Made by a program: the position numbers and the translations under genes
DNA from: Candidatus Omnitrophota bacterium
GTDB taxonomy: Bacteria > Omnitrophota > Gorgyraeia > Zapsychrales > Zapsychraceae
Direction of reading: 5' to 3'
DNA: 64,000 bases
NCBI GenBank assembly: GCA_029261065.1
Contig: JAJDCB010000024.1
Span: 102,364 to 166,363, forward strand
Notes under the pieces: generated by a model
The model's database searches: none
Told to the model about the DNA's origin: nothing
The model's input: only the letters and a program-made list of their open reading frames with translations
Part shown: piece by piece, positions 44,212 to 64,000 of the stretch
How positions within the stretch are numbered: the stretch's first letter is position 1
Layout of the letters: each line of letters opens with the position of its first letter

Positions 44212-44222
44212 GATGTAGAAAA

Positions 44223-45617: not shown

Positions 45618-45625
45618 GGTTACTC

Positions 45626-46402: not shown

Positions 46403-47882
46403 TTTTAGAAATTGTTAAGTTAAGTCCCTCGATGCTTTTAACGACAACGGCCATTCCTTTTTTAATGTCACCGTCATCGGCAATAGCATTCCAAATAGTG
46501 CCATGAACAAATACCTTTCCATATTGGGAGGCTGAGAATTGAGTTAAAGCCTCACCTTTCTTGCCAACGATTCCCGCTTCACCTGTTTGAACTTTTAATT
46601 TTCTAAATTTGACAAAGATACGAAGAAAATAAAAAGCAACACATCCTGAGATGACTACGACACTAAAAATAGCTGATTGTGAAACACGCATAATAGGATC
46701 AACAGATTCAAATAAAAGCATAGAACCTAATACAAGACAGACTAATCCCCCTAACGTCAATAGACCAAATCCTGGGATAAAGGCCTCTGAAACTAATAAC
46801 ACTAAACCCAAAACCATTAAAGAAAGGCCTGCATAATTAGTAGGTAATGTCTGCATACTATAAAAAGCCAAAATTAAAAATATCGATCCTAATATTCCAG
46901 GAACCCCAACGCCAGGATGTGTAATTTCATAGAGCAGACCATAAAAACCAAAAATCATCAAAAAATATGCGATATTAGGACTTGCCAATATATTAAAAAA
47001 TTGCTGACGCATATCCATTTTAGACTCTTTTATCTCAGCATATTTCGTTTCCAATGTGATCAGCTCACCGTTAACCTTTAATTGATATCCATCTAACTGT
47101 TCTAATAAATCATTTCGATTTGCGGCTAAAATTTCAATAACACCTTTTTCGTGAGCTTCATCTGCCGTAATCGAATCACTTTTTGTAACACTTTGAACCG
47201 CCCACTCTACATTTCGATTTCTTTCATTTGCAATTGATTTAATAAAGGCAACCGTATCATTTAAGATTTTACTAGCCATGGGATTCTCATCCTCGATGAA
47301 AGTTTCATCTTCTTTATCGTCTGAAATGTTCTTTGTTTCGGAATTTTCTTCTTCCTCCAAATGTTCAACATCTTCTTTTAAACCCTGACGTTGGTTTTTA
47401 AGTTCATCAATCAATTCTTTAAGCTCTGACCAATCTCCTCTGCCCTTAGGTGCTTTTCCTCCTCCTAATTGAACAGGATGTGCAGCTCCAATATTGGTTG
47501 ATGGAGCCATTGCTGCTATGTGGCTTGCATATGTTATGAAAACTCCGGCTGATCCAGCCCGAGATCCGTTAGGAGCTATGTAGACTATAATAGGAACCTT
47601 GGCTCTCAGCATCCTTTTAACAATCAAACGCGTTGATGAGAGAAGTCCTCCGGGAGTATCTAACTCGATGATAAGGGCTTTTGCATTATCACTTTCAGCA
47701 TATGTAATCGCATCTGTAATATACTCAGCTGTGACAGGATTAATCGAATCATCTTCTAAGCTAATGAGATGAAAGATGTTTTGGGGTAAACTTTGTGTTT
47801 GCTTTGAAAGAAAAATTAAAAATAAACCAACGCATAGGATAAGAAGATACGGAAAACAACGTTGGCTTTTAGTTTTTGTCAT
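46377..47882 (-). CDS. NfeD-family membrane-bound ClpP-class serine protease (long form, C-terminal OB-fold)
   Basis: N-terminal ClpP-like domain. Acidic insert. Multi-TM segment. C-terminal NfeD beta-barrel ([27 protein letters not shown]). Overlaps the SPFH gene by 26 nt. Confidence 0.8.
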
Positions 47883-47900
47883 AAAATATTTAACGATTGA

Positions 47901-49355: not shown

Positions 49356-49393
49356 GTCTTTATATCCTCTCTCTTTTTTAATTATTTATTAAA

Positions 49394-50683
49394 TTAACGT
49401 TGATCTATAGGAACAAACGGACGTTCCGTCGCCCCAGTATAAATTTGTCGTGGTCGACCAATTTTTGACTTTGGATTTTCTTTCATTTCTTTCCAATGAG
49501 CAATCCATCCTGGCATACGTCCAATCGCAAACATGACTGTAAACATATCTGTTGGAATTCCTATAGCCTTATAAATGAGACCACTATAAAAATCGACATT
49601 CGGATAAAGTTTGCGTTTAACAAAATATTCGTCTTTAAGTGTTGCCTCCTCCAGTTTGAGGGCAATTTCCAAAAGTGGATCATGGATTCCTAATTTATCG
49701 AATAGTTCATGCGTTCTCTTTTTAATAATGATACTTCGTGGATCAAAATTTTTATAAACCCTATGACCAAATCCCATCAATCTATAGGAATCATCAGGGT
49801 CCTTGGCTTTATCAATAAATTTTTGAACATCACCGCCGGCTTGATGAATTTCCTCCAACATCTCAAGAACCTTTTGATTAGCGCCACCATGTAATGGCCC
49901 CCACAACGCACACACTCCCGCCGAAATGGAAGCAAACATATTCGCCCAAGAACTCCCCACCAATCGTACTGTTGAAGTACTACAATTTTGTTCATGATCA
50001 GCATGTAATATTAAAATTGAACGTAAAGCGCTAACAATAATATCATCAATAGGAAATTCTTTTTCTTTTGTTGAAAACATCATATGTAAAAAATTAGCAA
50101 TATATGATAAATCACTACGTGGTGGGACAAAATCTTGATTAAGACTTTGTTTATATGTATAGGCAGTTATTGTACGCACCTTTGATAACAATTGTGCAGC
50201 TGTTTTTTTCATCTCTTCCTGACTGGGTTCAGGCGCTAATAGTTCTGGATAGTAACCTGATAGGGAACAAATCATAGCAGATAAAAGCCCCATAGGGTGC
50301 CCCCCTTGAGGATAACCGCTAAAGGAGCTTATCATATCTTTATGCAAGTCAGCGTGGGCTGTAAAAGACTGTGAAAATTGTGATAATTCATCCTTTTTAG
50401 GTAACTCACCTTCAATAAGCAGGTAGGCTGTTTCGACAAAACTCGATTGTTCAGCAATTTGTTCTATAGGATAACCTCTATAGCGTAGAATACCCTTCTC
50501 TCCATCCAAATATGTAATGGCACTGGTGCATGAGCCAGTATTACCAAACCCATTATCAACTGTGATATAAGAAGTCTCGCCACGTAACTTCGTTATATCA
50601 ATACCCTTTTCATTCTCTGTACCAATAATCACAGGAAAGTCGTAACTTTTTCCATCAATAACAATTTGAACTTTTTCATCCAT
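49394..50683 (-). CDS. gltA: Citrate synthase
   Basis: GFGHRVYKNFDPR signature and catalytic His/Asp blocks. 429 aa. Confidence 0.95.
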   Translation of the reverse strand: MDEKVQIVIDGKSYDFPVIIGTENEKGIDITKLRGETSYITVDNGFGNTGSCTSAITYLDGEKGILRYRGYPIEQIAEQSSFVETAYLLIEGELPKKDELSQFSQSFTAHADLHKDMISSFSGYPQGGHPMGLLSAMICSLSGYYPELLAPEPSQEEMKKTAAQLLSKVRTITAYTYKQSLNQDFVPPRSDLSYIANFLHMMFSTKEKEFPIDDIIVSALRSILILHADHEQNCSTSTVRLVGSSWANMFASISAGVCALWGPLHGGANQKVLEMLEEIHQAGGDVQKFIDKAKDPDDSYRLMGFGHRVYKNFDPRSIIIKKRTHELFDKLGIHDPLLEIALKLEEATLKDEYFVKRKLYPNVDFYSGLIYKAIGIPTDMFTVMFAIGRMPGWIAHWKEMKENPKSKIGRPRQIYTGATERPFVPIDQR

Positions 50684-50889
50684 AAATATACTCCATTTAA
50701 TTTTGAGAGGTTGATCTGGGTTTATTTCTTGTGATAAGGATCAATCGGTTTTGTTCTTCACAGTTAACTTTTTTGTTCTATCACATAGATTTGAAACAGA
50801 ATAACAATAAATCAAAACACATTCCGCTGATTCCTATTACCATTATATTATGAAAAAGCATTTATTCAAGATGATTCACACAGGAGTCA

Positions 50890-52146
50890 TTATTTTTTTA
50901 ATTTTATTACATTTTTTAGCTTAAAAAATACAAAAATGAATGCAATTGCGGCAATACTTGAAATCAAATGTAAAACTAGCTTCTCCCATCTATTGTTTAC
51001 AGGTGTAATATTCGGTTTTTCTATTGTAAACATATTACTCATCATAGTTGATATTTGCGATGATTCAAACTTATATTCTTCTAATTCCTTTAAATAAGTA
51101 TCAACTAACTTATTGGTTTCCTTTTTTATTTTTATATAGCTATTATCATTTAAAGATGCCGTAACATCATCTATATAATAATGATTCATTATAGATAAAA
51201 GCATGCGTTTTCTATTTTCGAGAAACAACTTTCTTATAGCTAGAGAAAAATCAAGTTCTAACTCCATTGTTAGCTTATTTTTAAGTTGTTCTTTTAACTG
51301 ATCAATAATAAGAGTTTTATACTTGTTAATTTTTTTTGTTTTTTCTTGCGACTCCACATTTCTTGAACTTAAAATCGCGCTTACCTTTTGTTCGAATTCA
51401 AGCTCTAGAATACGACGTTCTAAATTAAAATATAAAAAATTGTCTTTAGAAACTTCTTTTATTAAACTCTCAAAAAGTTGATGGGTATTATGAGAAAGAA
51501 GTACATTTTTGTATTTATTAATGTCACGTATAACCTTATTGATTTCTGTCTCTATTTTCATAGATGCTAATAACAAAATCGTATCCAAAGTTTCTTTATC
51601 CTCTTTATTAAGGACTAAGACCTTTTTATTAAAAGGAAACATATAAAGCGTTTGTTCGTTGAGGATAATGTCATCAATTTTTTTAGAAAATTTATGTTGA
51701 AGGCGATCCAATTTATCCACGGTGTATTGGTTAATATCATCCATTTTCTGTTCGACAAACACGTCTCCAAAAGCAGCCGCCATCAAAGCCGCTTTTTTAG
51801 GATTATCGGAAATGACACTTATTGCAACTTTATTGCTCGCAATTTTTTCAACATTAACATTAGATTGCAAGGATATAGAGGAATCATAGACAAAATCCTG
51901 TGTATTCCTCTCATCCACGGGCATCACATGTGTTTTGGTTATAATTCGATTGACTACAGGTAAACTTCTAATAAACTGTATTTCCTTATTGATATCAAGA
52001 TCTCTACCTTCAAAGTTTTTAAGTGATAAAAAGATTTTAGCCTCATAAACATTTTTGTGGAATAACTGATAACAAAACACAATAATATTAACGATAAGTA
52101 GGATTTTTAAAATTGTAAATTTTTTATTCTTTAACAGTTGAAGCAT
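50890..52146 (-). CDS. Membrane-anchored coiled-coil protein (N- and C-terminal TM helices), unknown function
   Basis: TM FTILKILLIVNIIVFCYQLF near the N-terminus and LVLHLISSIAAIAFIFVFFKL at the C-terminus. 6-nt gap to the upstream gene. Confidence 0.55.
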   Translation of the reverse strand: MLQLLKNKKFTILKILLIVNIIVFCYQLFHKNVYEAKIFLSLKNFEGRDLDINKEIQFIRSLPVVNRIITKTHVMPVDERNTQDFVYDSSISLQSNVNVEKIASNKVAISVISDNPKKAALMAAAFGDVFVEQKMDDINQYTVDKLDRLQHKFSKKIDDIILNEQTLYMFPFNKKVLVLNKEDKETLDTILLLASMKIETEINKVIRDINKYKNVLLSHNTHQLFESLIKEVSKDNFLYFNLERRILELEFEQKVSAILSSRNVESQEKTKKINKYKTLIIDQLKEQLKNKLTMELELDFSLAIRKLFLENRKRMLLSIMNHYYIDDVTASLNDNSYIKIKKETNKLVDTYLKELEEYKFESSQISTMMSNMFTIEKPNITPVNNRWEKLVLHLISSIAAIAFIFVFFKLKNVIKLKK

Positions 52147-52152
52147 TTAAAT

Positions 52153-53340
52153 TTAATCCTCTTTCATTTCATCAAGCATCTTCTTTAATTGTTCTGAATC
52201 CAAATCATCCTGTGACTTCTCAGCTAAGTCTTCTTCATCGCTCGGCTCTTTAACACTCCCCTTATCCTCACTCAATTCTGCTGCAACTTCAGTTTCCTCA
52301 GGTTTAACTATTTGTTCAAAATAAGCCTCCACACTAGCATTTGGAAAATTTTCGTCATTAACCAAAGACTCTTCATTATTCTGCTCGTTTTGTTCTTTAG
52401 TTGTAAAGGCTTGGCCAATTATCGTATCTGATGATGTATTAAAAAGAGGAGCATCATTCTCTGAAGCAACAGACTCTTCATCTCCAGTAGGTAATAGTAG
52501 CTTTTCTTCATCTGAATCTATTGATACTTCAGGCAAATTTTCACTTTGATCTATTTCATCATCAACGGGCTTTGGGGAGGTTTTCCCTTTTTCGATATCA
52601 TCTACTATTTGTAGAATATTGGCGTCACTATCATCAGGTATTTCCAATTCCATAATTTCTGCTGTAGCCTCTTTATCAACTGTCTTTTTAGTTTCATTTA
52701 TTTTCGTATTCTCTTTTGGTTTTTTTTCTACAGTAGTTTGCGTTGGTTTCTCTTCCTTAGGCCTATTAAATAAATAATAAAATTTTTTAAGCAAAATATA
52801 ATTAACGATAAAACCAAGGACTATTAGAACCAAAAATTGAAGTAAAAATCTAATACTAACCATCTCTTTAAGTTGATAAAAATAGCCAGGCATTAGACTT
52901 TCAACGGCAATAATACTTTTCAGTTGGCGATTATACAGAAATCGAATATGTCTTACTGATTCAAAATTTTGCTCATAAGTATTTTCTGGGTATGAAATCC
53001 AGCCCTCTTTAAACTTTTGCATTTCAAAAACAATTTTGCTCTTATACATCCGCCAATAATTGTCCTTTTTCTCTCTATCAAGAATCATAGCCCCTGTCGC
53101 TTGATCAGTAATATATACCAAAACATTTTTTGAATACAATTCTTTTAAATCAATGTCTGGCGAATCTAATTTAGAATTTAAATAAACGGCGAGATTATCT
53201 AAGTTTTTTTTCTCAAGCAGGGTAGTTTTTTGAAGATGAATAAAGAGTTGATGAATTGTAATGGAAGAAAAGGCACAAATAAAAAAGAAACAGTATATTA
53301 TGAAAAGAAATTTAAATGTATTATTTTTTTTATTTGGCAT
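52153..53340 (-). CDS. Two-TM membrane protein with about 140-aa extracytoplasmic domain and long acidic disordered C-terminal tail
   Basis: TM1 FKFLFIIYCFFFICAFSSITI, TM2 FLLQFLVLIVLGFIVNYILL. Tail rich in E/D/K/S/T. 46 nt downstream of the giant gene. Confidence 0.55.
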   Translation of the reverse strand: MPNKKNNTFKFLFIIYCFFFICAFSSITIHQLFIHLQKTTLLEKKNLDNLAVYLNSKLDSPDIDLKELYSKNVLVYITDQATGAMILDREKKDNYWRMYKSKIVFEMQKFKEGWISYPENTYEQNFESVRHIRFLYNRQLKSIIAVESLMPGYFYQLKEMVSIRFLLQFLVLIVLGFIVNYILLKKFYYLFNRPKEEKPTQTTVEKKPKENTKINETKKTVDKEATAEIMELEIPDDSDANILQIVDDIEKGKTSPKPVDDEIDQSENLPEVSIDSDEEKLLLPTGDEESVASENDAPLFNTSSDTIIGQAFTTKEQNEQNNEESLVNDENFPNASVEAYFEQIVKPEETEVAAELSEDKGSVKEPSDEEDLAEKSQDDLDSEQLKKMLDEMKED

Positions 53341-53386
53341 TGCAATATACTGTTTTGACGATACATATGCATTTGGTTAACAAGTA

Positions 53387-56300
53387 TTATTCGTAAGCTT
53401 CTATAAGATCCAAAGCATTATTAATTTCACTTTGTAATTCTTGAAAAACTGGATTTTGATCCCTGGGCTTATCAAATATGGTTGTTTTATCACGTTCTTG
53501 AGAAAGCAATTCTTCATACTTCTTTTTTGAATCATCTAAATCTTTAGTTAGATTGTGAATCGCTTCCTGTAAGGAGGATCTTTCCTTCATTAAAGAAAAA
53601 AGCTCACTATCTAATACTCTTTTCTGGTTTTTCAACTCATCATTAACAGACTTTTGCTCTGATAAGAGACCTTCTGTATCATTAATCTTCTTTTTAAACT
53701 CTTCAATATCTTTCTGTAGTGGACGCACATTAGTTAAAACCTTACTTTTAAAGGCTTCATCCATATTACTCATTTTGTCTTCAAGTTCATTTACCTGTTT
53801 TTGTAAAGGCACTCGAGCCTCCATAACTTTATTTTTAATCTCCCCTTCATGCGCATCTACTTCTTTTGTCAAATCATCCACTTTATATTTAAGGCTCTTT
53901 TTTTCAGACTCTTCTTGAGCCAATTCTGTTTCTAAAACATTTAACTTTTGCTTCATACGAGACAAAATTTCATCTTTCTCAGAAAGCAATTCTTTAGACT
54001 TTTCCAATTTTTTGTTAATTTTACTCATTTCTTCATTTAAGCTTAAGGCTCCAGAGCTCTCAATTTCTCTAACTTCATTCTCTTTTTCGATTAACTTTGC
54101 GGTTAAATTCTCAATTTCTTTTCTTAAAACTGATTCAGCAGCTTTAATTTTTGAAGGTAAAGCCTCTTCTGTATTTTTTAATTTTGATATCGTTGACTGA
54201 AGGAGACCTTCTGTATTCTCTCTTTCCGATTGAATATCTATTAATTGTTTCTTAATATTATCGAGGTTTCGATCCTTTTCAGCTATCAAAGCTTCCCGAT
54301 CCATAAGAGATTGTTTTAAGGATCGCACTTTCTGATCAACATCACCCTTACTTTGTTCCTTGATTTTTATAAAATCAAGGCGAACGTTTTCAATTTCACT
54401 TTTAAGAGAAGCAACTTCTGTATTCTTCTCATTTTCTAAGTTTTGATATTTTACTAATACTTCATCCCTCTCTTTAAGAGCTAATTTATAATCAGACTCT
54501 AATCCCGTCTTTAATTTTGTTTGACCAGTTTTTAATTCTGCAACAACCTTCTGATTTTCAATAACTTCTTGCTGGGCTAACTTAAGTCTACTTTCTAAAT
54601 CCAACATCTCCTTATAATATTCCTCCTTCTCTGCCTTAACCAATTTATAGTCTGTCTCCAAAGTCTTGTTTAATTTTGATTGATTTCTTTTTAACTCATC
54701 AACTATTTCTTTATTCCTAAAATTTTCTTTTTCAAACAACGCAGCTTGATCTTTTAACTCTACAATCTTTTGCAAATACTGATCTTTTTCTCTGTTAAAG
54801 ATAGACACCTTCATATCAGATTGATCATTCAATACGCTAATTTTGTTCTCAAGCTCTGTTGTCTTTTTCTGATATTCAGCAATTTTATTTCTTAATTCCT
54901 TAAAATCACTATCCTTAGTCTCAAGTTCTTTTTTAACCTTCGACATATTGCCATCAATCCCATTAAGTTGTTTTTGCAACTTATCATTTTCAATAACAGA
55001 TAAATTGAATTCTTCCTCTAATCGTTGTTTTTGTAATACAAGCTTATCTGTGTGTTGTTTTTGTTCAAGATTAATTTGATTAGAAGCCTTTAGCCGCTCA
55101 TTTAGACTCTCTTGTTGATATATTAAATCTTTTCTTAATGCCGCAATTTCTTGATCAAATTTGTCTTGAATTTGATTATTCTGTGTTTCTAATTGACTAT
55201 TAGTCCTTTTAAGGTCATTACTTTGATTTTCAGCCTCTCTAATTTTTCGCATTAAATCTTGTTTCTCATTATCAAAATTTTTTAACTGTACAGAGTTTAA
55301 TTTCTCACCCTCTTTTAAAACATCAAGACTCCTCTTTAGACCATTGATTCTTTCTAATAATGGTTTTTCAATAAGAGTTATTTTATCTGCAAACCCAATC
55401 TTCAAATTATTGACATCCTTTTGTAAATTAGAAGCACTGTTATTTAAGTTTTCATTCTCTTTTGTCAAGGACGAGACCTGGTTAATTAAATTCGAATTTT
55501 TTGATTTATAATCTGTCAAATTCGCTAACTGATTGTTAACAATATTTTGAAGATCTTTATTTTCATCAGCAGATTTAAGAAGCTTCTTATCCAAACTCAA
55601 TTTAAGATTAGAAAGAGTTTCTCGGTACTTTTCTTCAATTTCTTTTCTTTGCTCAGAAAGATCATTACGTAAGTTTTCATTTTTACTCATTACGAGATTA
55701 TTGGATCTATTTAATTCTTCAAATTTATCAGAAGCTTCCTTAAGACTTGCCTGATATCTTCTATTTTCTTCTTTTTCTACTGCCAAATTTTGAGATAATT
55801 CTGTTAATTCTGTCGTTTTAGAAACTAATTGTTTGTTCAACTTATCCAATTTCCCACCAAATTCTACCGTAGATGTATTATTTTTAGATTCCAACTGTTT
55901 AAGACGCGCGAGTAAACTTGTTTTTTCATTCTCTAAAGCAGAAAATCGGTTACTTGTCTCCTTTAATTGAGAGTTTAAATCTTGATTTTTGTTTTCTAGC
56001 TCCTGATTAACAGCCATATGATCGTTTAATTTAAGCTTTCCAGCCTCTATTTCTTTGAGTAACGGTGCCTTTTCCTCATTAATGCGTTGAGGTATAACAC
56101 TAGTGACATCACGCAACTTTATTTCTAACTTTGAGTTCTCTGTTTGCCATTTGGAATTCGTTTCCTTTTCGTTATTTAATCGAGTAAGAAGATCGTTGTT
56201 CTCATCATTAAGCAGTGACATTTCTTGAGAATTTGTTTTAATTTGGTTCGAAAGATTCGTTTTCTGCTTTTTAAAATCTTCAATTTCTTTTCTTAAAGGA

Positions 56301-59300
56301 GCTTGGGCCATCTCAACTAAACTTGGGATATCACTTTCCCTTTGTTTAAGCTGCTCTTCTAATAGAGATATATTATTACTTTTCTTGACAAGATCTTCTT
56401 CAAATGTGCTAACAAGTCCCTGCAGCTCCTTTTTTTCGACTACTAGTTGTTCTTCGGTAATTTTTAACGTGCTATATGAATTTTGAATTTCTTGATTTTT
56501 ATTCTTTAATTCTTGAATTTGACTATTTAATTGAGAAGTTTCACCTGCAAACTTCTCACTAGAGGCCTTTATCTGATTTAATAGATTCTTTTTTAATTGA
56601 GCAATTTCTTCATTTAACGCCTCTTTAGATTGTTTACTTTTTAAATTCAAACCCACAATAGACTCTTGTGCTTTTTGTAATTTATTAGATAATTGAGATA
56701 TTTCAGACTCAAAATCTCTATTTTTGCCATTTAATGAAGCAATTTCATTTACAAGTTTAGAATTATTACTTTTAAGTTCATTTTTCTGCGCACTAAAAAC
56801 TTGGATTTCTTCTTCTTTTTCTCTTATAAATTTTTGCTTAATATTCTTTATACGGGCCTCCATTTCATTTTTTTCATTAAACAAGGCTGTATATTCAATA
56901 CTCTTATCTTTAAATTGTTTTAATAACGTTTCTTTTTCCTTTAAATTCTGAGATATTACAAGCTCTTTATTTTTTAATTGCGAACTTATATCTGTTATTT
57001 TTTTTTCTAAAATGGATTCTTGTAATTCTAAAGGCTTTCGAGCTTCAGCCAATTGTTTGGGAATGTTATTTTCAATTTCTTGTTTAACTTTGGCCAAATT
57101 TTCTAATTTTTCATTTAACTGAATAACGTTTTGACCTAATTTTTCTAAATCCGTTTTGTATTTATTATTTGAATTGGTGAGTCTTTGTATTGTCTTTACT
57201 TGAGCTGAATTTTGCTGATCTTTCTTTTGAAAGGTAAGTTGCAGCTCTTTATATTTTTCATTTAACTGAATTAGCCTCTGATCAACTTTTCCTAAGTCCG
57301 CTTTATATTTATTGTTTGAACTGGTGAATGCATCTATTGTCTTTTCTTGAGCTAAGTTTTGCTGATCTTTCTTTTGAAAGGTAAGTTGCAGCTCTTTATA
57401 TTTTTCATTTAACTTCTCAAGTGTCACATTTAATTTCTTAAAATTTAATTGAGAGCTGTTCACTTGATTCGAAGCCTTCTTAACATCTGACTCTAACTGC
57501 GCAATAATCTTTGTTTTATCTAAAAGGTTTGCATTTAATTCACTTTTCTGAGTATTAATATTACCCAATTTTTTCTCAAATTCCGATTTTGCTGAATCTA
57601 GAAGCTGCTGATTTTTTAAAACAATTTGATCCACTTTCGCCTTTAAGGCATCTACTTGAGCTAATAAATTTGTTTCTTTTTGTGATTTTACTTCTAGACT
57701 ATTTGATAAGCCCTTTATTTGCTTCTCTAAAGACGCAACATGAGCTTCTTTATCTTTAGTAATGTTTTCAGCATTTTTTAGTTTCATCTCATTTTGACTT
57801 ATATTATCTCTAAGGGTTTGCTTTTGAACTTCATGTTTATCGGTTAATGCTTCAAAAGCCTTTACATTTTCTTTCTTCAAAGTTTCAATTCTTGTGTTTA
57901 ATTGCGCAACAGCATCATTTGCCTTGCCTAATTTTGTGATAATATCTGTTTTGTTTTCTTCTAAATTTCTTGAGTTCTTAATTTCATTGTTTAAATTTTC
58001 ATTAACACCCCTTAAATGCCCTTCTAACGTTTTAATTTCATTTAACAAAGGTGTGGTCTCTTTCGATATTAGAGCAGGCATAGCTTCTTTGGTTGCTTTC
58101 AAGGTGGTCTCTACAGCTACTTTTTGCTTAACTAAATCCTCTTGTTGAACTTTTAAATTTGTTAAATTCGACTGTAAAGAAGCATAAGACTTCGTTAACT
58201 CTTGAAATTTTTGTGTATTTTGTTTAATAGCACCTTTTTTTTCCTCTAATAAATTCTTAAAAGACAACAACTGCTCATTTAATGGCTTTTTAACCAATTC
58301 GATCGTTTTTGGAATTTCATTTTTTATCTTAACAATTTTATTTTCTAAATCATTAATAACATTTGCTTGATTTTTCAACTCTTTGGCTTGTGCCTTATTC
58401 ACAACTTCTTTTTTTGTAACTGTATCCCTTAAATTGGCTACATCTTTAGATTTACTCTTTATAGTCTTAGTTATTTGCTCATTACTATCCTTTAAACTTT
58501 TAATTTGAAGCTGATAATCTTTTTCTAATTTCGATAACTTTAAATTTGCAGCTGTTTTATCTTTTTTCCAATCTGCGTTTGCTTTAACCCATCTGTTGTC
58601 TTTTTCACTAATCGCACCAGATAAATCTTTTATTTTGTTATTAAGATCGGCATTTTTATTATTTAATACTAAAAATGTTTTTTCCTGTTCCTTTATAAAT
58701 ACATTTTTTTGCTTAAAACCTTCTGTTAATTGAGCAATTTCGCTTAATAAGGGAGCCTTTTGTGCATCAATCATTCCAGGAATATTTGCCTTTGTCGTAT
58801 TTAAATTTTCAGTTAATTTTGCTACGTTCTCATTAGACGTTGATAGCTGACTGTCCGTGTCGTTAAGCTTGTTAACTAATTCTTTGCTTTGAGCATTTAA
58901 AGAATCATACGCCCCATTACGCTCATAAAGCTCATTTTTTATTTTTACAATTTGATCCTTAAGAACCCCCATCTCTTTAAAAAGCGGTTCTTTAGCCTTC
59001 TTTATCTGAGCAGGGATAGTCTGCTTTACAGAGGTTAATTCTTCACCCTTTTGATTTAACAAATCTTGTAATTTCTTTCGATTTGCCGCATCTAATTTTT
59101 GTTGACTTAATAACCGCCCTTTTTGTTTCTCCATTTCAGAGACGGAGTTCTGATAACTCTCCAAAGCCTTTGTTAACTCAACTATTTTGTTATCTGATTC
59201 CTTTAATTTAAATTGTAATGGATCACGAACCTTAGCAATCTGTTGTGGAACACTCATTTTCAGATTATTAAAATTTTCCGTTAATTTATTAATATCGCTA

Positions 59301-62300
59301 ATTTTCTTTTTATTCTGAATGCTTAACGTTTCTATAGCCGTATTATTCTTTGATAATTCATCCCTTTGCTTCTCTATAAGAGCATCTTTGGTCTTTCCAG
59401 ATGTAGCAAATTGATTTATCTTCTGATTTAAGCCATTAATCTTATTCTCTAATGGCTTCTTGGCTTGCGCAATTTGTGATGGATAAGCCGCTTCTTTTTC
59501 TTTGATGATATTCGCATAATTCTTCACTTTCTTCTCTAGATTAGTCTTTACTGATGAAACCTTCATCACGGATTCTTCAGAGTCTTGTAGAAGTTTATTT
59601 AATTCAGAGATTGAAATACTCTTATCTTCTATATCATCAGTTAGAACACTTAATTGTTTTTGTTGTGCAGCAATCTTCTCATTTAAAGGCTTTAAGGATG
59701 CAAGAAGATCACGATTATATTTTTTATTGGCAACAACTAGGGCGTTATCTAATTCAGAGGCCTTAGTTTGAAAGTGATCGGACTGCTCTTTTAAAGCATC
59801 CATTTTTTGCTTTAAACTATTGCGTTGTAGCTCAGCATTGCGGATTGATTTATCTTTGTTTTCTACACTTTGAGTAAGTTGTTTCACCTGCCTATTTAGA
59901 GATGAATTTTCCTTCTCTAAAGGTGTCTTTGCCAAAGAAATCTGTTGAGGGATGCTTTTCTTTAATCGATCAGAACTTGCTAGCTGGGCATCTAACTTTT
60001 TTTGATATTCGCTAATAACTTCCGTTTGCGTTAAGACTTTTTGAGTTAACGTTTCTTTTTCTTTATTTAAAAAGACTAACGACTTCTCCCTTGCTTTATT
60101 TGCATTATCTAGAGTATTTACTTTGTTAAGTAACTGTGAGGCTTTCTCCTCTAACGGTCGCGTGGCTTCACTAAGTTGCTGGGGAATCGATTTAACAGTA
60201 TCATCCAATTTCTTCTCAAGAGCTGTCTTTGCTTTAGATAGAAAAGATTCGCTTTCTTGTAATTTCGTATAGCTTTCTTTTAAACGTAATTGATCTGCGT
60301 TTAATTTTTGTAAAAGCGATGCCTTTTCAGATAAATTCACAGTTAATTGCTGAAGTTTTTCTTCCAATGGTTTTTTGGCTTGTTGTATTTCAAGCGGTTT
60401 ATTCTTTAAAGTATTGCTTAGTTTTGCTTGCGAGAGATTTAAATTTTGCTCATACTTTTTTATCTCAACACTTGACTTTTGTAATTGGCTTATTAAACTT
60501 TCCTTCTCTAAATTTAAATTTTTTAATAGTTTTTTGTTTTCTTCATTAATTTTTAAATATTCGGATTCCATAGATTTGGCATTTGCTTTGCTTTGCTTCA
60601 AAGCATCAGCTAAGCGCGAACTATTGCCTTCATAAGTCCTCTTCTCTTCAGCTAAAGATTTTTGCAAATCAGAGACTTTAGAATTTAAAGGATCTCTCAC
60701 CGCATTTACTTTTAGAGGAATACTTGCTTCTAACTGTTCGAACTTCTTAGCCAACTGATATAATTGCTTCTCCGTATTATCTTTGGCCACCTTTAAAGAT
60801 TTAAAGCTATTCGTCATAGTCTTATTTTCATTTACAATTTCTTGAACACTTACTTGACTGCTCTTTAAATTTTCCGTTGTTGTTATAAGACTCTTTGTTA
60901 ATTCTTTAATCCTGGCTTCTAATGGCTGCTTTACTTTTTCAATTTCTGTAGGAATGCTCGAGATAAGCTCAGCATTCTTTTGTTCCAAACCGCCCTTTGA
61001 TTTTGACAATAAAAGATTTTGTTCTTTTAATTTTTGAAGTTCTGTGATCTTTTGCTTATTCCCTTTATCCAGCTCAACAATGAGTCCATCCTTTTTATTT
61101 AATTGCGCATCGCTTAAAGATAATTTCTTATTTAATTCAGCCATTTGAGCTTTAAGCGGCTCTTTCGCTAATTCAACTTTTGAAGGTAAAGATTTTTTTA
61201 GTGCATCCAATTCTTTACTCAGTTGATTAACCTCAGCATTTAAATTATTCCTCAAAGTAAAAAGTTTTTCTTTATCAGAATTTAACGAATTAACTTTATT
61301 GCTATAATTTTTTAAATTTAGATTTCTTTGTGACAGAGTCTCTTTTAGATCAGCAACAGTGTTTTCAAGCGGCAATTTGGCTTCTTTTAGTTTTGCTGGC
61401 CAAGCTTGATTTTGTTTTGAGAGTTCTGAAGCGAGCTTTTTTCTCTCTGACTCTACTTTGATGAGCGTATCTTTAAGCTCTAGAAGACTATTTTCTTTTG
61501 CAGTATTTAGTTGTTTAAGTTTCTCCTCAGAGCTTTTAAAACTTACTTCTTTCAATTGTAACGTTTTATTTTGCTCCGCTATTCTTTTCTCTAAAGGTAA
61601 CGTTGCTTTTCTTATCTCTACAGGTAATTTTTTCTTAAACAGATCAAATTCTTTAACAATTGCTTTTCTTTGATTCTCAGAATTACGGAAGGCTGTATTT
61701 CTATTATCAAGATTATTTTGAAGATCTGAAATTGTTTTCACTAAAGGCGTACGCACAGATTGAATTTGATTAGGCAACGCTGCATTTAATTGTTTAATTT
61801 CATCTTTAAGAACTACAACCTCTTTATTACTTGCATCTAAGGCTTGTTTTCTCTGATTTGAAATAGCCGCTAATTTACTCTTTTCAGCTGAACTAGAAAG
61901 TTCTTTCTCTTTTGAAACAAGTAATTGTTTTTGGAAGCTTTGTAATTGTTCTTCTAAAGGTTTCTTAACACGACTTATTTCAGCAGGAATAGAGGCTTGT
62001 AACTTTTTAACTTCAGAAGTTAAAGCAGCAACCTTTGAATCTTTTGTTTCAAGAGCACCACCCTGTACTTTTAATTGAGTCACTAAAACAGAGATCTTGC
62101 TAAGTAGAGGCTCTTTGCTATCTTTAATTTGCTTTGGAATATTCCCTTTTAGAGCTCTTAATTGAGAATCTTTGGTTTTAATCTCTTTTGAAAGGGCTGT
62201 AAAATTAGCTTGGATGTTACTGTATTTGCTGAGAGTCTCTTTTCTGGATTGCGATTCTTTGGACAATTGCGATTCTTTTAAAGCAAGCTGCTTCTCTAAT

Positions 62301-64000
62301 TCCTTCATAGATGCTTGAATGAGTTTTAATTGTTCTTCTAGAGGAGCTTTAGCCTCTTTCACTAGTTGAGGAACAGCTTGTTCTTTACTTTTCAGTTGAC
62401 TCTTTATCTGAATATTTTCATTTTTTAAATTTTTAAGTGCGGTATTTGATACTTGCAATGTTTTTTGAGTATCACCTTCTAATGTTTGAAATTGCTTTTT
62501 AGAATTTTCTAATTCTGCGTTTAATGTTGATAATTTGCTTTTTTGTGCGTCACTATCCTTACCTAAACGTTGAATTTTTTCATTTGCAGCTTTCAATTTT
62601 ACCTGCGTCGCTTCATAATCGTTGCTTATCGATGTCGTTTCAAGCTTATGTTTTTTTTGTTCTTCTACCACTAATTTTTTTAAATTTTCAAGTGCGGTAT
62701 TTGATACTTTCAATTTTTTCTGAGCATCACTTTCTAATATTTGAAATTGCTTTTTAGAATTTTCTAATTCTGCGTTTAGTGTTGATAATTTGCTTTTTTG
62801 TGCATCACTATCCTTACCTAAACGTTGAATTTTTTCATTTGCAGCTTTTAATTTTGCCTGAGACGAATCATAATCTTTACCTTTTGAAGTCGTTTCAAGC
62901 TTATGTTTTTCTTGTTGTTGTGCCACTGATTTTTTCAAATTTTCTAATTCTTTTTTTAAGAAAATCTCACTTTTTGTAAATTCGCCGCTTACCCTTTCTT
63001 TTTCCGTATTTGCCGTTAGAAGTTGCTTATTTAATTCTTTAAGGTCATTGCTTAACTCAACTATCTGGTTATTAAGTTGGGCATTGACTTGCTTATCTCT
63101 TTTACTTATAGCTTTTTGATTAGTTAATGTCGTTTTTAATTCTTTAAGGGATGCTTCTAAAGGTTTTTTAACCAGCTCGATTTTTTGGGGAATTTCGTCA
63201 GTCTTTGTTTTTAGCTGTATTTTTAAGTTTTTAACTTCTTTTTCTGAAGAATCATTTTGTGCTAGAAGATTATTTTTTTCTTGCCTTAGTTGATCAATAA
63301 CTTTTTGATCATTTTCCATCAAAGCTTCTTTGGATTGCAGCGACTTCTTTTTCTCTTTTAATTTCTTAGACAATTCAGAGATTTGAAAATTTAAAGGCGC
63401 TACAACTTCTTTCTTTTGCTGCACCATACTGGCATTGAGCTCAACCAATTGGGATGTAAGACTTTCCTTTTTGGCCATTAGTAAGGCTTGCTTTTCTTCA
63501 GACGATTTCTTTACTGATAAAAGTTCGCTAGAAAATTTATTCCCCAAACTATCTACCTCTTTAAAATGGGCTTGCTGTTGCCTTGCAAGTTTATCATTTA
63601 GATTTTTCAAATCAGCTTCTAAAACTTGAGTCATGGACTTTTTGCGTGCCATTTCTTTTTTTAATTTATCAATTTGTTTTTGATAGTCGCTTACTTCACT
63701 CGATTTTTTGGAAATATTTTCATTTAATTTGGTAATATCCGTTTTATATTTACTCTCATTTTGTTCAAGCAACTTTTTATTTGAAACTTTTAGCGTTGTT
63801 AAATCCTTATTTAACAACTTTACCTTTTCTTCTAATGGCGTTTTAGCTGATGCAATCTTTTTAGGTAAATTTATTTCTAAATTTTTAATTTTTGATGTTA
63901 ATTTCGCAACCTCTGCATCTAATCGCTCATTATTGACCCGTTCGCCTTTTATCTGTTTATCCAACAACTCTTTATCCTTCTTAATGTCATGTAATGTTTT
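53387..64000 (-). CDS. Giant coiled-coil repeat protein, more than 3,530 aa. The ORF is open at the window end, so the real N-terminus lies beyond 64000.
   Basis: One uninterrupted minus-strand ORF of more than 10.6 kb. The in-frame sequence upstream of the track's TTG start (63965-63967) has no stop up to 64000. Composition K/E/Q/L/N/S-rich with heptads. A recurring motif appears at least 25 times: [IL]P-x-[QK]-[IL]-x-x-[AV][KR]-x-PL-[EL]. Confidence 0.85.
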   Translation of the reverse strand, partial: KTLHDIKKDKELLDKQIKGERVNNERLDAEVAKLTSKIKNLEINLPKKIASAKTPLEEKVKLLNKDLTTLKVSNKKLLEQNESKYKTDITKLNENISKKSSEVSDYQKQIDKLKKEMARKKSMTQVLEADLKNLNDKLARQQQAHFKEVDSLGNKFSSELLSVKKSSEEKQALLMAKKESLTSQLVELNASMVQQKKEVVAPLNFQISELSKKLKEKKKSLQSKEALMENDQKVIDQLRQEKNNLLAQNDSSEKEVKNLKIQLKTKTDEIPQKIELVKKPLEASLKELKTTLTNQKAISKRDKQVNAQLNNQIVELSNDLKELNKQLLTANTEKERVSGEFTKSEIFLKKELENLKKSVAQQQEKHKLETTSKGKDYDSSQAKLKAANEKIQRLGKDSDAQKSKLSTLNAELENSKKQFQILESDAQKKLKVSNTALENLKKLVVEEQKKHKLETTSISNDYEATQVKLKAANEKIQRLGKDSDAQKSKLSTLNAELENSKKQFQTLEGDTQKTLQVSNTALKNLKNENIQIKSQLKSKEQAVPQLVKEAKAPLEEQLKLIQASMKELEKQLALKESQLSKESQSRKETLSKYSNIQANFTALSKEIKTKDSQLRALKGNIPKQIKDSKEPLLSKISVLVTQLKVQGGALETKDSKVAALTSEVKKLQASIPAEISRVKKPLEEQLQSFQKQLLVSKEKELSSSAEKSKLAAISNQRKQALDASNKEVVVLKDEIKQLNAALPNQIQSVRTPLVKTISDLQNNLDNRNTAFRNSENQRKAIVKEFDLFKKKLPVEIRKATLPLEKRIAEQNKTLQLKEVSFKSSEEKLKQLNTAKENSLLELKDTLIKVESERKKLASELSKQNQAWPAKLKEAKLPLENTVADLKETLSQRNLNLKNYSNKVNSLNSDKEKLFTLRNNLNAEVNQLSKELDALKKSLPSKVELAKEPLKAQMAELNKKLSLSDAQLNKKDGLIVELDKGNKQKITELQKLKEQNLLLSKSKGGLEQKNAELISSIPTEIEKVKQPLEARIKELTKSLITTTENLKSSQVSVQEIVNENKTMTNSFKSLKVAKDNTEKQLYQLAKKFEQLEASIPLKVNAVRDPLNSKVSDLQKSLAEEKRTYEGNSSRLADALKQSKANAKSMESEYLKINEENKKLLKNLNLEKESLISQLQKSSVEIKKYEQNLNLSQAKLSNTLKNKPLEIQQAKKPLEEKLQQLTVNLSEKASLLQKLNADQLRLKESYTKLQESESFLSKAKTALEKKLDDTVKSIPQQLSEATRPLEEKASQLLNKVNTLDNANKAREKSLVFLNKEKETLTQKVLTQTEVISEYQKKLDAQLASSDRLKKSIPQQISLAKTPLEKENSSLNRQVKQLTQSVENKDKSIRNAELQRNSLKQKMDALKEQSDHFQTKASELDNALVVANKKYNRDLLASLKPLNEKIAAQQKQLSVLTDDIEDKSISISELNKLLQDSEESVMKVSSVKTNLEKKVKNYANIIKEKEAAYPSQIAQAKKPLENKINGLNQKINQFATSGKTKDALIEKQRDELSKNNTAIETLSIQNKKKISDINKLTENFNNLKMSVPQQIAKVRDPLQFKLKESDNKIVELTKALESYQNSVSEMEKQKGRLLSQQKLDAANRKKLQDLLNQKGEELTSVKQTIPAQIKKAKEPLFKEMGVLKDQIVKIKNELYERNGAYDSLNAQSKELVNKLNDTDSQLSTSNENVAKLTENLNTTKANIPGMIDAQKAPLLSEIAQLTEGFKQKNVFIKEQEKTFLVLNNKNADLNNKIKDLSGAISEKDNRWVKANADWKKDKTAANLKLSKLEKDYQLQIKSLKDSNEQITKTIKSKSKDVANLRDTVTKKEVVNKAQAKELKNQANVINDLENKIVKIKNEIPKTIELVKKPLNEQLLSFKNLLEEKKGAIKQNTQKFQELTKSYASLQSNLTNLKVQQEDLVKQKVAVETTLKATKEAMPALISKETTPLLNEIKTLEGHLRGVNENLNNEIKNSRNLEENKTDIITKLGKANDAVAQLNTRIETLKKENVKAFEALTDKHEVQKQTLRDNISQNEMKLKNAENITKDKEAHVASLEKQIKGLSNSLEVKSQKETNLLAQVDALKAKVDQIVLKNQQLLDSAKSEFEKKLGNINTQKSELNANLLDKTKIIAQLESDVKKASNQVNSSQLNFKKLNVTLEKLNEKYKELQLTFQKKDQQNLAQEKTIDAFTSSNNKYKADLGKVDQRLIQLNEKYKELQLTFQKKDQQNSAQVKTIQRLTNSNNKYKTDLEKLGQNVIQLNEKLENLAKVKQEIENNIPKQLAEARKPLELQESILEKKITDISSQLKNKELVISQNLKEKETLLKQFKDKSIEYTALFNEKNEMEARIKNIKQKFIREKEEEIQVFSAQKNELKSNNSKLVNEIASLNGKNRDFESEISQLSNKLQKAQESIVGLNLKSKQSKEALNEEIAQLKKNLLNQIKASSEKFAGETSQLNSQIQELKNKNQEIQNSYSTLKITEEQLVVEKKELQGLVSTFEEDLVKKSNNISLLEEQLKQRESDIPSLVEMAQAPLRKEIEDFKKQKTNLSNQIKTNSQEMSLLNDENNDLLTRLNNEKETNSKWQTENSKLEIKLRDVTSVIPQRINEEKAPLLKEIEAGKLKLNDHMAVNQELENKNQDLNSQLKETSNRFSALENEKTSLLARLKQLESKNNTSTVEFGGKLDKLNKQLVSKTTELTELSQNLAVEKEENRRYQASLKEASDKFEELNRSNNLVMSKNENLRNDLSEQRKEIEEKYRETLSNLKLSLDKKLLKSADENKDLQNIVNNQLANLTDYKSKNSNLINQVSSLTKENENLNNSASNLQKDVNNLKIGFADKITLIEKPLLERINGLKRSLDVLKEGEKLNSVQLKNFDNEKQDLMRKIREAENQSNDLKRTNSQLETQNNQIQDKFDQEIAALRKDLIYQQESLNERLKASNQINLEQKQHTDKLVLQKQRLEEEFNLSVIENDKLQKQLNGIDGNMSKVKKELETKDSDFKELRNKIAEYQKKTTELENKISVLNDQSDMKVSIFNREKDQYLQKIVELKDQAALFEKENFRNKEIVDELKRNQSKLNKTLETDYKLVKAEKEEYYKEMLDLESRLKLAQQEVIENQKVVAELKTGQTKLKTGLESDYKLALKERDEVLVKYQNLENEKNTEVASLKSEIENVRLDFIKIKEQSKGDVDQKVRSLKQSLMDREALIAEKDRNLDNIKKQLIDIQSERENTEGLLQSTISKLKNTEEALPSKIKAAESVLRKEIENLTAKLIEKENEVREIESSGALSLNEEMSKINKKLEKSKELLSEKDEILSRMKQKLNVLETELAQEESEKKSLKYKVDDLTKEVDAHEGEIKNKVMEARVPLQKQVNELEDKMSNMDEAFKSKVLTNVRPLQKDIEEFKKKINDTEGLLSEQKSVNDELKNQKRVLDSELFSLMKERSSLQEAIHNLTKDLDDSKKKYEELLSQERDKTTIFDKPRDQNPVFQELQSEINNALDLIEAYE
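57111..57420. repeat. About 2.1 tandem copies of a 147-bp (49-codon) unit inside the giant gene
   Basis: tgctgatctttcttttgaaaggtaagttgcagctctttatatttttcatttaac occurs at 57213 and 57360. tcatttaac anchors at 57111, 57258 and 57405. Protein LNEKYKELQLTFQKKDQQN(L/S)AQ...IQLNEK is repeated. Confidence 0.75.
62430..62940. repeat. Two tandem copies of a 255-bp (85-codon) unit inside the giant gene, about 90% identical (coordinates +/- a few bp)
   Basis: Anchors aagtgcggtatttgatact at 62435 and about 62690. Protein copies ...KLKAANEKIQRLGKDSDAQKSKLSTLNAELENSKKQFQ(I/T)LE(S/G)D(A/T)QK... are near-identical. Confidence 0.8.

Follow-up and report, generated by a model that had tools for sequence, protein, structure and literature searches.

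A 3,913-residue coiled-coil protein with periodic two-proline joints from Candidatus Omnitrophota, a candidate envelope or surface fiber

Described here is a giant gene on the minus strand of a stretch of Candidatus Omnitrophota DNA, 64,000 nucleotides in length (contig JAJDCB010000024.1 of assembly GCA_029261065.1, forward-strand positions 102,364 to 166,363), which is referred to throughout as the window. The gene enters the window at its far edge and ends at position 53387, and its product is a 3,913-residue, proline-punctuated coiled coil in which a conserved motif containing two prolines recurs with a period of 78 residues. Our confidence in this architecture is high. On balance, and with a fair degree of confidence, the protein is read as a structural fiber of the cell envelope or surface, ∼0.55 µm in length. 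For a role as an extracytoplasmic fiber of this kind, our confidence is about even.

The giant gene and its full-length product

The reading frame is open for 3,537 codons followed by a stop codon at positions 53387-53389. The initial annotation of this DNA had described a single open reading frame of more than 10.6 kb with no stop up to the window edge and an N-terminus lying outside of the window, and both points hold. The database protein P0001 contains 3,913 residues, of which 377-3913 are identical to the window translation. The window thus encodes the last 90% of the protein, and the 376 missing N-terminal residues (1,128 nucleotides) place the start codon ∼1,128 nucleotides beyond the edge. 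The earlier estimate of more than 3,530 residues accordingly becomes 3,913. The window translation is rich in Lys, Leu, Glu, Asn, Ser, and Gln, contains 54 prolines, and lacks cysteine. The full-length protein is likewise devoid of cysteine and has no LPXTG motif.

The N-terminus of P0001 reads MKNRKYPFYKITLILITFNICFLTPHLYA followed by QKDD. Its n-region is basic, its core is hydrophobic, and the residue at position -1, just ahead of the glutamine, is small. This is the sole hydrophobic segment of the protein, the KD(19) maximum of 1.65 being found only there, and it passes directly into the coiled coil. Reading by eye of the segment and its cleavage site suggests that P0001 carries a cleavable Sec-type signal peptide, and thus the protein would leave the cytoplasm. 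In the full-length protein, the secretion signal that the initial annotation had proposed to look for thus appears to be present.

At the nucleotide level the only repeats in the gene are two recent tandem duplications, which are listed here together with the gene itself.

53387..64000, minus strand: 3' part of the giant gene (10.6 kb), encoding residues 377-3913 of the 3,913-residue protein
62421..62930, minus strand: tandem duplication (nucleotide repeats), 2 x 255 nucleotides, 90% identical, in a motif-free stretch of the rod
57106..57399, minus strand: tandem duplication (nucleotide repeats), 2 x 147 nucleotides, 85% identical, in a motif-free stretch

The 78-residue units exhibit ∼20% amino acid identity to one another and show no repetition among themselves at the DNA level. 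A collapse of that repeat during assembly, a concern raised at the outset, is therefore unlikely. A separate Logan assembly of run SRR15505515 shows 0 mismatches across window positions 50343-56822. The rod is still lengthening through in-frame duplication of segments, and the 78-residue units are ancient.

The two-proline joint and the coiled-coil register

Forty-six of the 54 prolines in the window part of the protein form 23 pairs with members exactly nine residues apart, and a leucine follows every second proline. In 20,000 residue shuffles, by comparison, such P-x8-P-L pairs numbered 0.82 on average and never more than 6. A position matrix constructed from the 23 strict copies was employed in a scan for degenerate copies scored against shuffles. 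Four of these, with first-proline positions at 193, 2871, 3282, and 3389 of the window translation, outscore every shuffle, and a fifth at position 1429 lies in register but retains the second proline only. The window part thus contains ∼28 joints (23 strict and ∼5 degenerate). The joints are listed below, with the number in parentheses referring to the first-proline residue of the window translation.

63821..63868, minus strand: joint motif 1, LPKKIASAKTPLEEKV (46), strict P-x8-P-L
63380..63427, minus strand: degenerate joint, MVQQKKEVVAPLNFQI (193), second proline only, 78 residues ahead of motif 2
63146..63193, minus strand: joint motif 2, IPQKIELVKKPLEASL (271), strict P-x8-P-L
62327..62374, minus strand: joint motif 3, VPQLVKEAKAPLEEQL (544), strict P-x8-P-L
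62093..62140, minus strand: joint motif 4, IPKQIKDSKEPLLSKI (622), strict P-x8-P-L
61943..61990, minus strand: joint motif 5, IPAEISRVKKPLEEQL (672), strict P-x8-P-L
61730..61777, minus strand: joint motif 6, LPNQIQSVRTPLVKTI (743), strict P-x8-P-L
61580..61627, minus strand: joint motif 7, LPVEIRKATLPLEKRI (793), strict P-x8-P-L
61355..61402, minus strand: joint motif 8, WPAKLKEAKLPLENTV (868), strict P-x8-P-L
61142..61189, minus strand: joint motif 9, LPSKVELAKEPLKAQM (939), strict P-x8-P-L
60908..60955, minus strand: joint motif 10, IPTEIEKVKQPLEARI (1017), strict P-x8-P-L
60674..60721, minus strand: joint motif 11, IPLKVNAVRDPLNSKV (1095), strict P-x8-P-L
60353..60400, minus strand: joint motif 12, KPLEIQQAKKPLEEKL (1202), strict P-x8-P-L
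60140..60187, minus strand: joint motif 13, IPQQLSEATRPLEEKA (1273), strict P-x8-P-L
59906..59953, minus strand: joint motif 14, IPQQISLAKTPLEKEN (1351), strict P-x8-P-L
59672..59719, minus strand: degenerate joint, YNRDLLASLKPLNEKI (1429), in the 78-residue register, second proline only
59438..59485, minus strand: joint motif 15, YPSQIAQAKKPLENKI (1507), strict P-x8-P-L
59204..59251, minus strand: joint motif 16, VPQQIAKVRDPLQFKL (1585), strict P-x8-P-L
58970..59017, minus strand: joint motif 17, IPAQIKKAKEPLFKEM (1663), strict P-x8-P-L
58736..58783, minus strand: joint motif 18, IPGMIDAQKAPLLSEI (1741), strict P-x8-P-L
58268..58315, minus strand: joint motif 19, IPKTIELVKKPLNEQL (1897), strict P-x8-P-L
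58034..58081, minus strand: joint motif 20, MPALISKETTPLLNEI (1975), strict P-x8-P-L
57017..57064, minus strand: joint motif 21, IPKQLAEARKPLELQE (2314), strict P-x8-P-L
56282..56329, minus strand: joint motif 22, IPSLVEMAQAPLRKEI (2559), strict P-x8-P-L
56048..56095, minus strand: joint motif 23, IPQRINEEKAPLLKEI (2637), strict P-x8-P-L
55346..55393, minus strand: degenerate joint, FADKITLIEKPLLERI (2871), 3 x 78 residues past motif 23
54113..54160, minus strand: degenerate joint, LPSKIKAAESVLRKEI (3282), first proline only
53792..53839, minus strand: degenerate joint, IKNKVMEARVPLQKQV (3389), from the position matrix
53702-53749, minus strand: additional half-motif NVRPLQKDI, from the sequence

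Measured from start to start, the spacing of the strict copies is 78 residues in 10 of the 22 intervals, which is the modal value. Multiples of 78 bridge the degenerate copies: there are two intervals of 156 residues, and 234 residues separate the strict copy at 2637 from the degenerate one at 2871. The remaining short intervals are 71 (three times), 50 (twice), 75, and 107 residues in length. Past residue ∼2000, in the C-terminal 40%, there are motif-free stretches of 245, 339, and 411 residues. The initial annotation had called for at least 25 copies of a motif recurring every 70-110 residues. The count is borne out, and the periodicity is sharper than was stated.

For column statistics, 17 in-register 78-residue units were stacked with positions numbered relative to the first proline. 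The hydrophobic core columns fall at -12, -8, -5, -1, +3, +6, +10, +14, +17, +21, +24, +28, +35, +38, and onward. Outside of the motif the core spacing alternates between three and four residues, as expected for heptads, whereas across the motif it is 3-4-4 / 3-4-4. Each motif thus consists of two consecutive 11-residue hendecads or, equivalently, two stutters, one per proline, and the 78-residue unit is composed of eight heptads (56 residues) and two hendecads (22 residues). A register tracker reveals a shift of +1 (modulo 7) across 21 of the 23 motifs, with control positions mostly at 0. Hydrophobicity has its strongest local Fourier power at a period of 3.5-3.6 residues, where it reaches ∼3 times the shuffled value. 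The giant, proline-punctuated coiled coil of the first description is indeed almost purely helical and heptad-based.

The d positions are occupied by leucine in 65 of ∼136 cases, and the a positions by Leu (32), Ile (28), Asn (19), and Val (14). Leucine at d together with Leu, Ile, Val, or Asn at a is typical of parallel two-stranded ropes, and an asparagine at a favors in-register dimers. Judging from its sequence, the giant protein is probably a parallel, in-register, two-stranded coiled-coil rod. If fully extended (3,883 residues x 0.1485 nm), it would measure ∼0.55 µm in length, with each 78-residue unit accounting for 11.6 nm. A model of residues 1495-1728 of the window translation, which encompass three units, was calculated with AlphaFold2 as a monomer, using a shallow pseudo-alignment of non-overlapping internal triplets. 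It consists of one uninterrupted helix, H2-233, with a predicted local distance difference test score (pLDDT) of 88.5.

A family of giants, the partner gene, and the gene neighborhoods

A screen of 1.84 billion representative proteins with a profile built from 27 internal units returned 245 matches with E <= 1e-3, 46 with E <= 1e-10, and 12 with E <= 1e-30, the top match being P0001. The family comprises about 46 sequence clusters, its members range in length from 1,300 to 4,143 residues, and the source genomes have a GC content of 31-52%. Across that range, at least 12 independent loci encode proteins with the same architecture, period, and terminal domains. The N-termini are signal-peptide-like, and many end in an alanine followed, after the putative cleavage site, by a glutamine.

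Within 20 other family proteins there are 141 further instances of the motif, and the consensus for the 22-residue joint is L-x3-L-x2-L-x2-S-[ILV]-P-[QE]-K-[IV]-x2-[AV]-[RK]-x-P-L-E-x-K-[ILV]-x2-L. The intervals are 78 residues in 56 of 125 cases, followed in frequency by 71 and 29, and 86 of the 125 are congruent to 1 modulo 7. The exposed positions conserved in the joint are Ser at -2, Lys at +2 (48%), Arg or Lys at +7 (72%), Glu at +11 (55%), and Lys at +13. Such conservation fits a docking site that recurs along the rod or, alternatively, residues that stabilize the helix locally near the prolines. More distant members such as P0048 retain only the second half-motif, [KR]-x-P-[LY]-E-x-K-[IL]. 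The C-terminal end of the rod is also conserved.

53390..53569, minus strand: conserved C-terminal domain (∼60 residues) formed by a QEAIHNLTKDL.. helix, a proline-containing linker, and the terminal helix ELQSEINNALDLIEAYE (53390-53440)

Thirteen aligned family C-termini, namely that of the window and 12 others, share the pattern [QE]EAIYxLTxK[LI] ... [LI][KR]xE[IV]xxA[LM][DE]LI[EK].

Those family members that carry an organism label (P0004, P0008, P0009, and P0023) are all from Candidatus Omnitrophica/Omnitrophota, and the rest are unlabelled metagenome proteins, such that restriction to the phylum rests on the labelled minority of matches. The citrate synthase encoded in the window is closest to those of Candidatus Omnitrophota metagenome-assembled genomes (MAGs), with identities of 72%, 66%, and 63%. 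No giant gene is present in L002-L005 (L numbers denote the loci compared here), which are the loci linked to citrate synthase in the nearest Omnitrophota MAGs; ORFs of 757-900 residues in these loci encode a hybrid kinase, an aconitase-like protein, and others.

The motif had not been recognized in the initial annotation, and the searches conducted here agree, with no curated match in Pfam, NCBIfam, or the PDB. Pfam and NCBIfam gave only sub-threshold, composition-driven matches to the giant protein (SMC_prok_B, Filament, and Tup_N, all below cutoff). A profile search of the PDB matched generic coiled coils on profile columns 23-77 only and never the motif columns. In the databases, the homologues are named 'hypothetical protein', 'Exonuclease SbcC', or 'chromosome segregation ATPase', and a full-text literature search on coiled coils in Omnitrophota produced nothing relevant. 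The family appears to be unnamed, undescribed, and so far seen only in Omnitrophota.

Several individual entries deserve comment. Annotation artifacts have truncated the database proteins of two homologues. P0002 (L085, GCA_964541845.1, 6.9-10.0 kb) begins after a scaffold gap of Ns, whereas the true gene encodes a signal peptide and has its start ∼3 kb further upstream. P0005 (L083, GCA_040960315.1; 1,738 residues) lacks the signal peptide that its cluster-mate P0151 (1,774 residues) contains. P0021 (539 residues) has ∼10 tandem half-motifs of the type A-[AK]-x-P-L-E-x-K-I-A-x-L-E at a spacing of ∼22 residues. Unlike the family, it has no signal peptide, its ends are rich in proline and serine, and it is possibly eukaryotic. 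Its half-motif may be convergent or very distantly related.

Directly upstream of the giant gene in L082, L083, L085, and L086 lies a gene encoding a partner protein of 246-292 residues. The partner starts with a signal peptide and a conserved N-domain (GEIINVNYKYKIAFTDL..GD.VEV..YLEVSE..ISKL), which a variable linker connects to a coiled coil at the C-terminus. A search based upon it returned 28 proteins, every named one of which is from Omnitrophota. Wherever the sequence of a partner locus extends downstream (L087/L088/L092, L089, L090, L093, L094, and L096), a coiled-coil giant with a signal peptide follows, and the longer of these giants show P-x8-P motifs at 78-residue spacing. Among strict-motif members, the partner (246-312 residues) is found immediately upstream in 10 distinct loci; none was called at the three divergent members L097, L098, and L099.

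The AlphaFold2 model of the partner displays a six-stranded β-barrel (pLDDT > 90), a disordered linker, and a helix of ∼105 residues. The best PDB matches of the barrel in Foldseek were the Vibrio flagellar LPHT ring, FlgT, and the N-terminal barrel of F1-ATPase. Given E values of only ∼1e-3, the fold is regarded as generic. A C-terminal docking motif shared by the giant and its partner was considered and rejected (hhalign probability of 1.3%).

The wider neighborhoods contain additional recurrent genes. SurE and a response-regulator-HD_5 gene (HD-GYP-type, a class of c-di-GMP regulator) are located upstream in L087, L097, and L098, and CysDN and Fur are also recurrent neighbors of family members. 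A block consisting of GT4, an unknown gene, AAA_22, and HD_5 lies downstream in L083 and L085, and in L085 it runs on into Wza, Wzz-GNVR-AAA_31, Wzy_C, and GT2. Wzy_C, PMT_2, and nucleotide-sugar genes are nearby in L090 and L099. Genes for Wzy_C-domain and PMT_2 (GT-C glycosyltransferase) proteins thus stand beside giant or partner genes in three loci, L090, L099, and L085. Wzy_C is also a domain of protein O-oligosaccharyltransferases, and there are hints that the fiber itself could be glycosylated.

In L098 (GCA_023247445.1), the order of genes is that of window positions 40420-53387, namely the giant gene, citrate synthase, M17 aminopeptidase, Band7, fumarase, and PntA/PntB, which demonstrates that the chromosomal position of the giant gene is conserved in a relative. 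The giant of L098 is 1,887 residues in length and contains the second-proline half-motif only, and the locus is without the 395- and 418-residue genes that follow the giant gene in the window.

52153..53340, minus strand: downstream gene 1, 395 residues, with an N-terminal transmembrane segment, a ∼130-residue external domain, a second transmembrane segment, and a ∼200-residue acidic tail
50890..52146, minus strand: downstream gene 2, 418 residues, with the topology of a Wzz/polysaccharide co-polymerase (PCP)-like protein, a transmembrane segment at each end, and no kinase domain

The first of these genes starts 46 nucleotides past the stop codon of the giant gene and the second 6 nucleotides further on, and no minus-strand terminator-like site was found between the giant gene and the two. 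The 395-residue protein has no significant Pfam or NCBIfam family. It is homologous to unannotated genes of 362 and 342 residues in the GT4/unknown/AAA_22/HD_5 clusters of L085 (1e-17) and L083 (6e-16). Its external domain is Cache-like by eye, with no Pfam match, and its tail (window 52153-52750) is cytoplasmic, acidic, of low complexity, and rich in Asp, Glu, Ser, and Lys. The topology of the 418-residue protein was read from the sequence. Its residues 3-382 match the Wzz-GNVR-AAA_31 gene of L085 (tblastn, 8e-38), and Pfam Wzz aligns with residues 2-55 at E = 0.017, under the curated cutoff, with no NCBIfam match. The initial annotation had proposed that these two membrane proteins could anchor or export the giant. 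This proposal is borne out only as far as recurrence goes, homologues of both being present near family members in other genomes, in EPS-type clusters.

Elsewhere in the window, a complete chemosensory cluster is encoded on one strand at positions 11926-13065 and 16266-30420. By Pfam it includes a PilJ-type receptor, a response regulator, a CheC-like protein, CheD, CheA (Hpt-P2-dimerisation-HATPase-CheW), CheB, CheR, a methyl-accepting chemotaxis protein with a HAMP domain, and a CheW-REC fusion. CheY-like and CheX-like genes at 28341-31040 were assigned from reading only. Such an amount of signaling is notable in a phylum that has been portrayed as reduced and dependent on hosts. Positions 35901-38645 encode a 914-residue secretion ATPase of the GspE/PilB type with a ∼250-residue acidic linker rich in Glu, Lys, and Val and an apparent C-terminal fusion to REC, as read from the translation. 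Haem-biosynthesis genes (URO-D, radical-SAM, and amine-oxidase-type, the latter two perhaps HemN- and HemY-like) are located at 1367-10301, along with a ResB-like gene and a succinate dehydrogenase/fumarate reductase operon. Together with the citrate synthase, fumarase, and PntAB genes, the haem and succinate dehydrogenase/fumarate reductase genes point to a respiratory metabolism capable of the tricarboxylic acid cycle. No tRNA or Rfam features were found in the window.

An envelope or surface fiber and its alternatives

Export, the partner, and a neighborhood of surface-glycan and HD-GYP genes are the grounds on which the giant protein is read as an envelope or surface fiber. The surface or extracytoplasmic fiber guessed at in the initial annotation gains support from the Sec-type signal peptide that the full-length protein and its homologues appear to carry.

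In the model proposed here, the Sec system would export the protein, and the mature chain would be essentially one α-helix with a heptad seam. At intervals of about 78 residues (11.6 nm), the heptads would yield to a 22-residue joint with hendecad packing, where the core persists but the supercoil unwinds locally and probably kinks. The two prolines, being nine residues (∼180°) apart, would lie on roughly opposite faces, and their opposite kinks would result in a jog or a flexible joint rather than a reversal of the chain. The rod could then be described as stiff eight-heptad segments connected by identical joints. It may serve as a coat, a tether, or a matrix scaffold, possibly glycosylated or embedded in exopolysaccharide, and its production may be coupled to the surface-polysaccharide genes.

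The geometry of the joints was estimated with Crick parameters for dimers. For a helix with 3.63 residues per turn, the heptads (56 residues at ∼+3.7° each) contribute ∼+206° and the hendecads (22 residues at ∼-1° each) ∼-22°. The net rotation is thus ∼184° per unit, although this value is parameter-sensitive and falls to 120° at 3.60 residues per turn. With a turn of ∼180° per unit, which is a half-pitch, every joint of a dimer would point to one and the same side, an arrangement that might suit lateral docking or assembly with an 11.6-nm repeat.

A more elaborate and rather doubtful extension regards the giant as an extracytoplasmic ruler or track with ∼30 docking sites, one per 11.6 nm, each defined by S-2, K+2, R/K+7, E+11, and K+13. 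The partner, or glycans added by Wzy_C or PMT_2 proteins, would attach to these sites, and rods packed side by side would form a fibrous, possibly glycosylated coat around the ultra-small cells. If so, a jointed coiled coil would make up the surface layer, in place of the globular lattice proteins of an S-layer.

The closest working analogues of the proposed envelope or surface fiber are the streptococcal M proteins and the stalks of trimeric autotransporter adhesins such as YadA and BadA, which are Sec-exported, parallel, in-register rods with non-heptad irregularities. They, too, are surface fibers, often encoded near surface-glycan genes. There is, however, no sequence homology, and the giant is ∼10 times longer than an M protein. 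It has no LP.TG anywhere, and no YadA-type anchor, head, or neck domains were found with Pfam or NCBIfam. The strictly periodic two-proline joint is a feature of the giant and not of the M-protein or trimeric autotransporter families. Exported coiled-coil rods of the envelope are also known in the tetrabrachion stalk of Staphylothermus, which uses 11-residue repeats, in Omp-alpha of Thermotoga, and in Braun's lipoprotein (Lpp). These are 10 to 100 times shorter, have lipid, SLH, or transmembrane anchors, and are not known to contain a periodic double-proline joint.

A different comparison is offered by the rods of myosin, paramyosin, and tropomyosin, which resemble the giant in having Leu at d and Leu, Ile, Val, or Asn at a, and in which stutters or skips at a fixed long period set the axial repeat for assembly or partner binding. 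These rods, however, are eukaryotic and cytoplasmic, lack prolines, have periods of 28/196 and ∼39 residues, and show no homology.

Other giants are known from the phylum. The Archaeovorins and the dockerin-type giants of Omnitrophota contain >= 20-147 thousand residues, many transmembrane helices, and SecA-DEAD/HEAT/TPR/GT or dockerin/TSP3 domains, and none of three papers on them mentions a coiled-coil class (bioRxiv 10.1101/2023.11.21.568195; PMC10066038; bioRxiv 10.64898/2026.06.07.730766). What they have in common with the present protein is the phylum, the outsized ORFs, and the suggestion that they act at the cell surface. Membership in either group was rejected, as the protein described here has 3,913 residues, one hydrophobic segment, and none of those domains.

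A number of observations weigh against the envelope or surface fiber. No secretion or anchoring domain was found in the giant protein with Pfam or NCBIfam, and it would have to be placed outside of the outer membrane with type II secretion system and type IV pilus genes only loosely near (L083; window 35901-38645). Its N-terminus, with a cleavage site called by eye, could instead anchor the protein in the membrane without being cleaved. In L098, the closest relative by synteny, the partner gene is missing, and the linkage to polysaccharide genes could reflect inherited synteny rather than function. Finally, a monomer run of AlphaFold2 cannot reveal the oligomeric state or kinks, and the program tends to over-extend helices.

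The alternative that survives best, though we consider it unlikely, is a periplasmic scaffold or ruler. Here the rod would stay between the membranes along the envelope of a very small cell, its proline joints following the curvature, and would act as a skeleton, a spacer, or a track organizing the PCP/Wza exporter. It would account for a signal peptide in a protein with no recognizable module for outer-membrane secretion or anchoring, and the PCP-like neighbor contains a coiled-coil domain in the periplasm. A rod of 0.55 µm would also be comparable to the circumference of a cell of 0.2-0.3 µm (cell sizes from PMC10066038). The similarity of the partner barrel to periplasmic FlgT and the LPHT ring, marginal at E ∼1e-3, points in the same direction, but this fold match is weak and generic, and the barrel also occurs in F1-ATPase N-termini. 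Moreover, no peptidoglycan- or membrane-binding domain was identified, and the Wzy_C, PMT_2, and GT4 neighbors fit a glycosylated surface layer at least equally well.

Improbable, in our estimation, is a chain that folds back at its prolines into spectrin-like bundles or apolipoprotein-like amphipathic belts, which is close to the initial annotation, where the prolines were said to break the helix periodically, giving a segmented rod reminiscent of spectrin or apolipoprotein-like repeats. Apolipoproteins A-I and E contain proline-initiated helical repeats that start with 'P-L-x-E-E', a resemblance that can be regarded only as a lead. The second proline of the joint lies in a helix-N-cap-like context, and a few family members have minimal units of 29 residues, both of which would accommodate folding back. 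The a/d seam, however, runs on through the motif with a fixed shift of +1 (21 of 23 motifs), which is the signature of a jointed rod and not of spectrin-like bundles. Likewise, the high-confidence, straight single helix predicted by AlphaFold2 over three units argues against reversal at the prolines. Adjacent segments of unequal length (78, 50, 71, 50, 75, and 71 residues) would prevent matched antiparallel packing, and the periodicity of 3.5-3.6 is not that of a pure 11/3 amphipathic helix.

Formal membership in both families was rejected as well. Spectrin repeats are three-helix bundles of ∼106 residues, whereas the giant has a 78-residue unit and one seam, and there is no match to PF00435 at E <= 0.1. 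Apolipoproteins A-I, A-IV, and E (PF01442) share with the giant helical repeats that begin with prolines thought to kink the chain. They are constructed, however, from 11/22-mer amphipathic, lipid-binding helices with no heptad core, as opposed to the 78-residue, heptad-based unit with paired P-x8-P described here, in which a/d heptads with a period of 3.5-3.6 dominate. Again, no match to PF01442 was obtained at E <= 0.1. A polyprotein cleaved at each motif is unlikely, to judge from the continuous core and the conserved end caps.

Very improbable is a cytoplasmic protein, be it an SMC/SbcC/Rad50-like chromosome protein or a cytoskeletal protein akin to intermediate filaments. The database labels 'Exonuclease SbcC' and 'chromosome segregation ATPase' would suggest as much, as would a match to NCBIfam SMC_prok_B at E = 1.3e-55 and a weak one to Pfam Filament. 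Long coiled-coil segments are what the giant has in common with SMC, SbcC, and Rad50, and they give rise to composition-driven matches of this sort. Indeed, the SMC_prok_B score is 188.8 bits versus a curated cutoff of 567, and it is spread over 15 stretches that cover the coiled-coil arm only. The ATPase heads, hinge, and zinc hook are absent, and Pfam detected neither SMC_N nor AAA in the fragment or in the N-terminal 376 residues. With no head halves and a score far below cutoff, membership was rejected. In addition, P0001 and the whole family start with signal-peptide-like N-termini.

An artefact, whether through repeat collapse or expansion in the assembly or a pseudogene frame open by chance, has a negligible probability: giant repetitive genes do misassemble easily, two recent tandem duplications lie inside this one, and the homologue in L085 is split by a scaffold gap, but the units are ∼20% identical and not repeated at the DNA level, an independent assembly is exact over 6.5 kb, and at least 12 independent loci have a common architecture, period, and terminal domains.

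What has emerged from the search is a separate, phylum-restricted, and currently mis-annotated family, of which the giant described here would be an exported rod half a micrometer in length. The end caps are conserved, the strict-motif members examined have a dedicated partner gene directly upstream, and links to surface-glycan and c-di-GMP genes recur. The database labels 'SbcC' and 'chromosome segregation ATPase' can be corrected accordingly. The joint follows a conserved design rule for which no description was found, namely two prolines nine residues apart, each in a stutter, tolerated inside a continuous core and with a period of 78 residues. It provides a means of testing ideas on how discontinuities set the pitch, flexibility, and axial registration of long coiled coils. 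The Omnitrophota are abundant, uncultured, and mostly ultra-small bacteria. For them, the giant fiber is a concrete candidate for a cell coat or tether, one that can be searched for in cryo-electron tomograms and metaproteomes.

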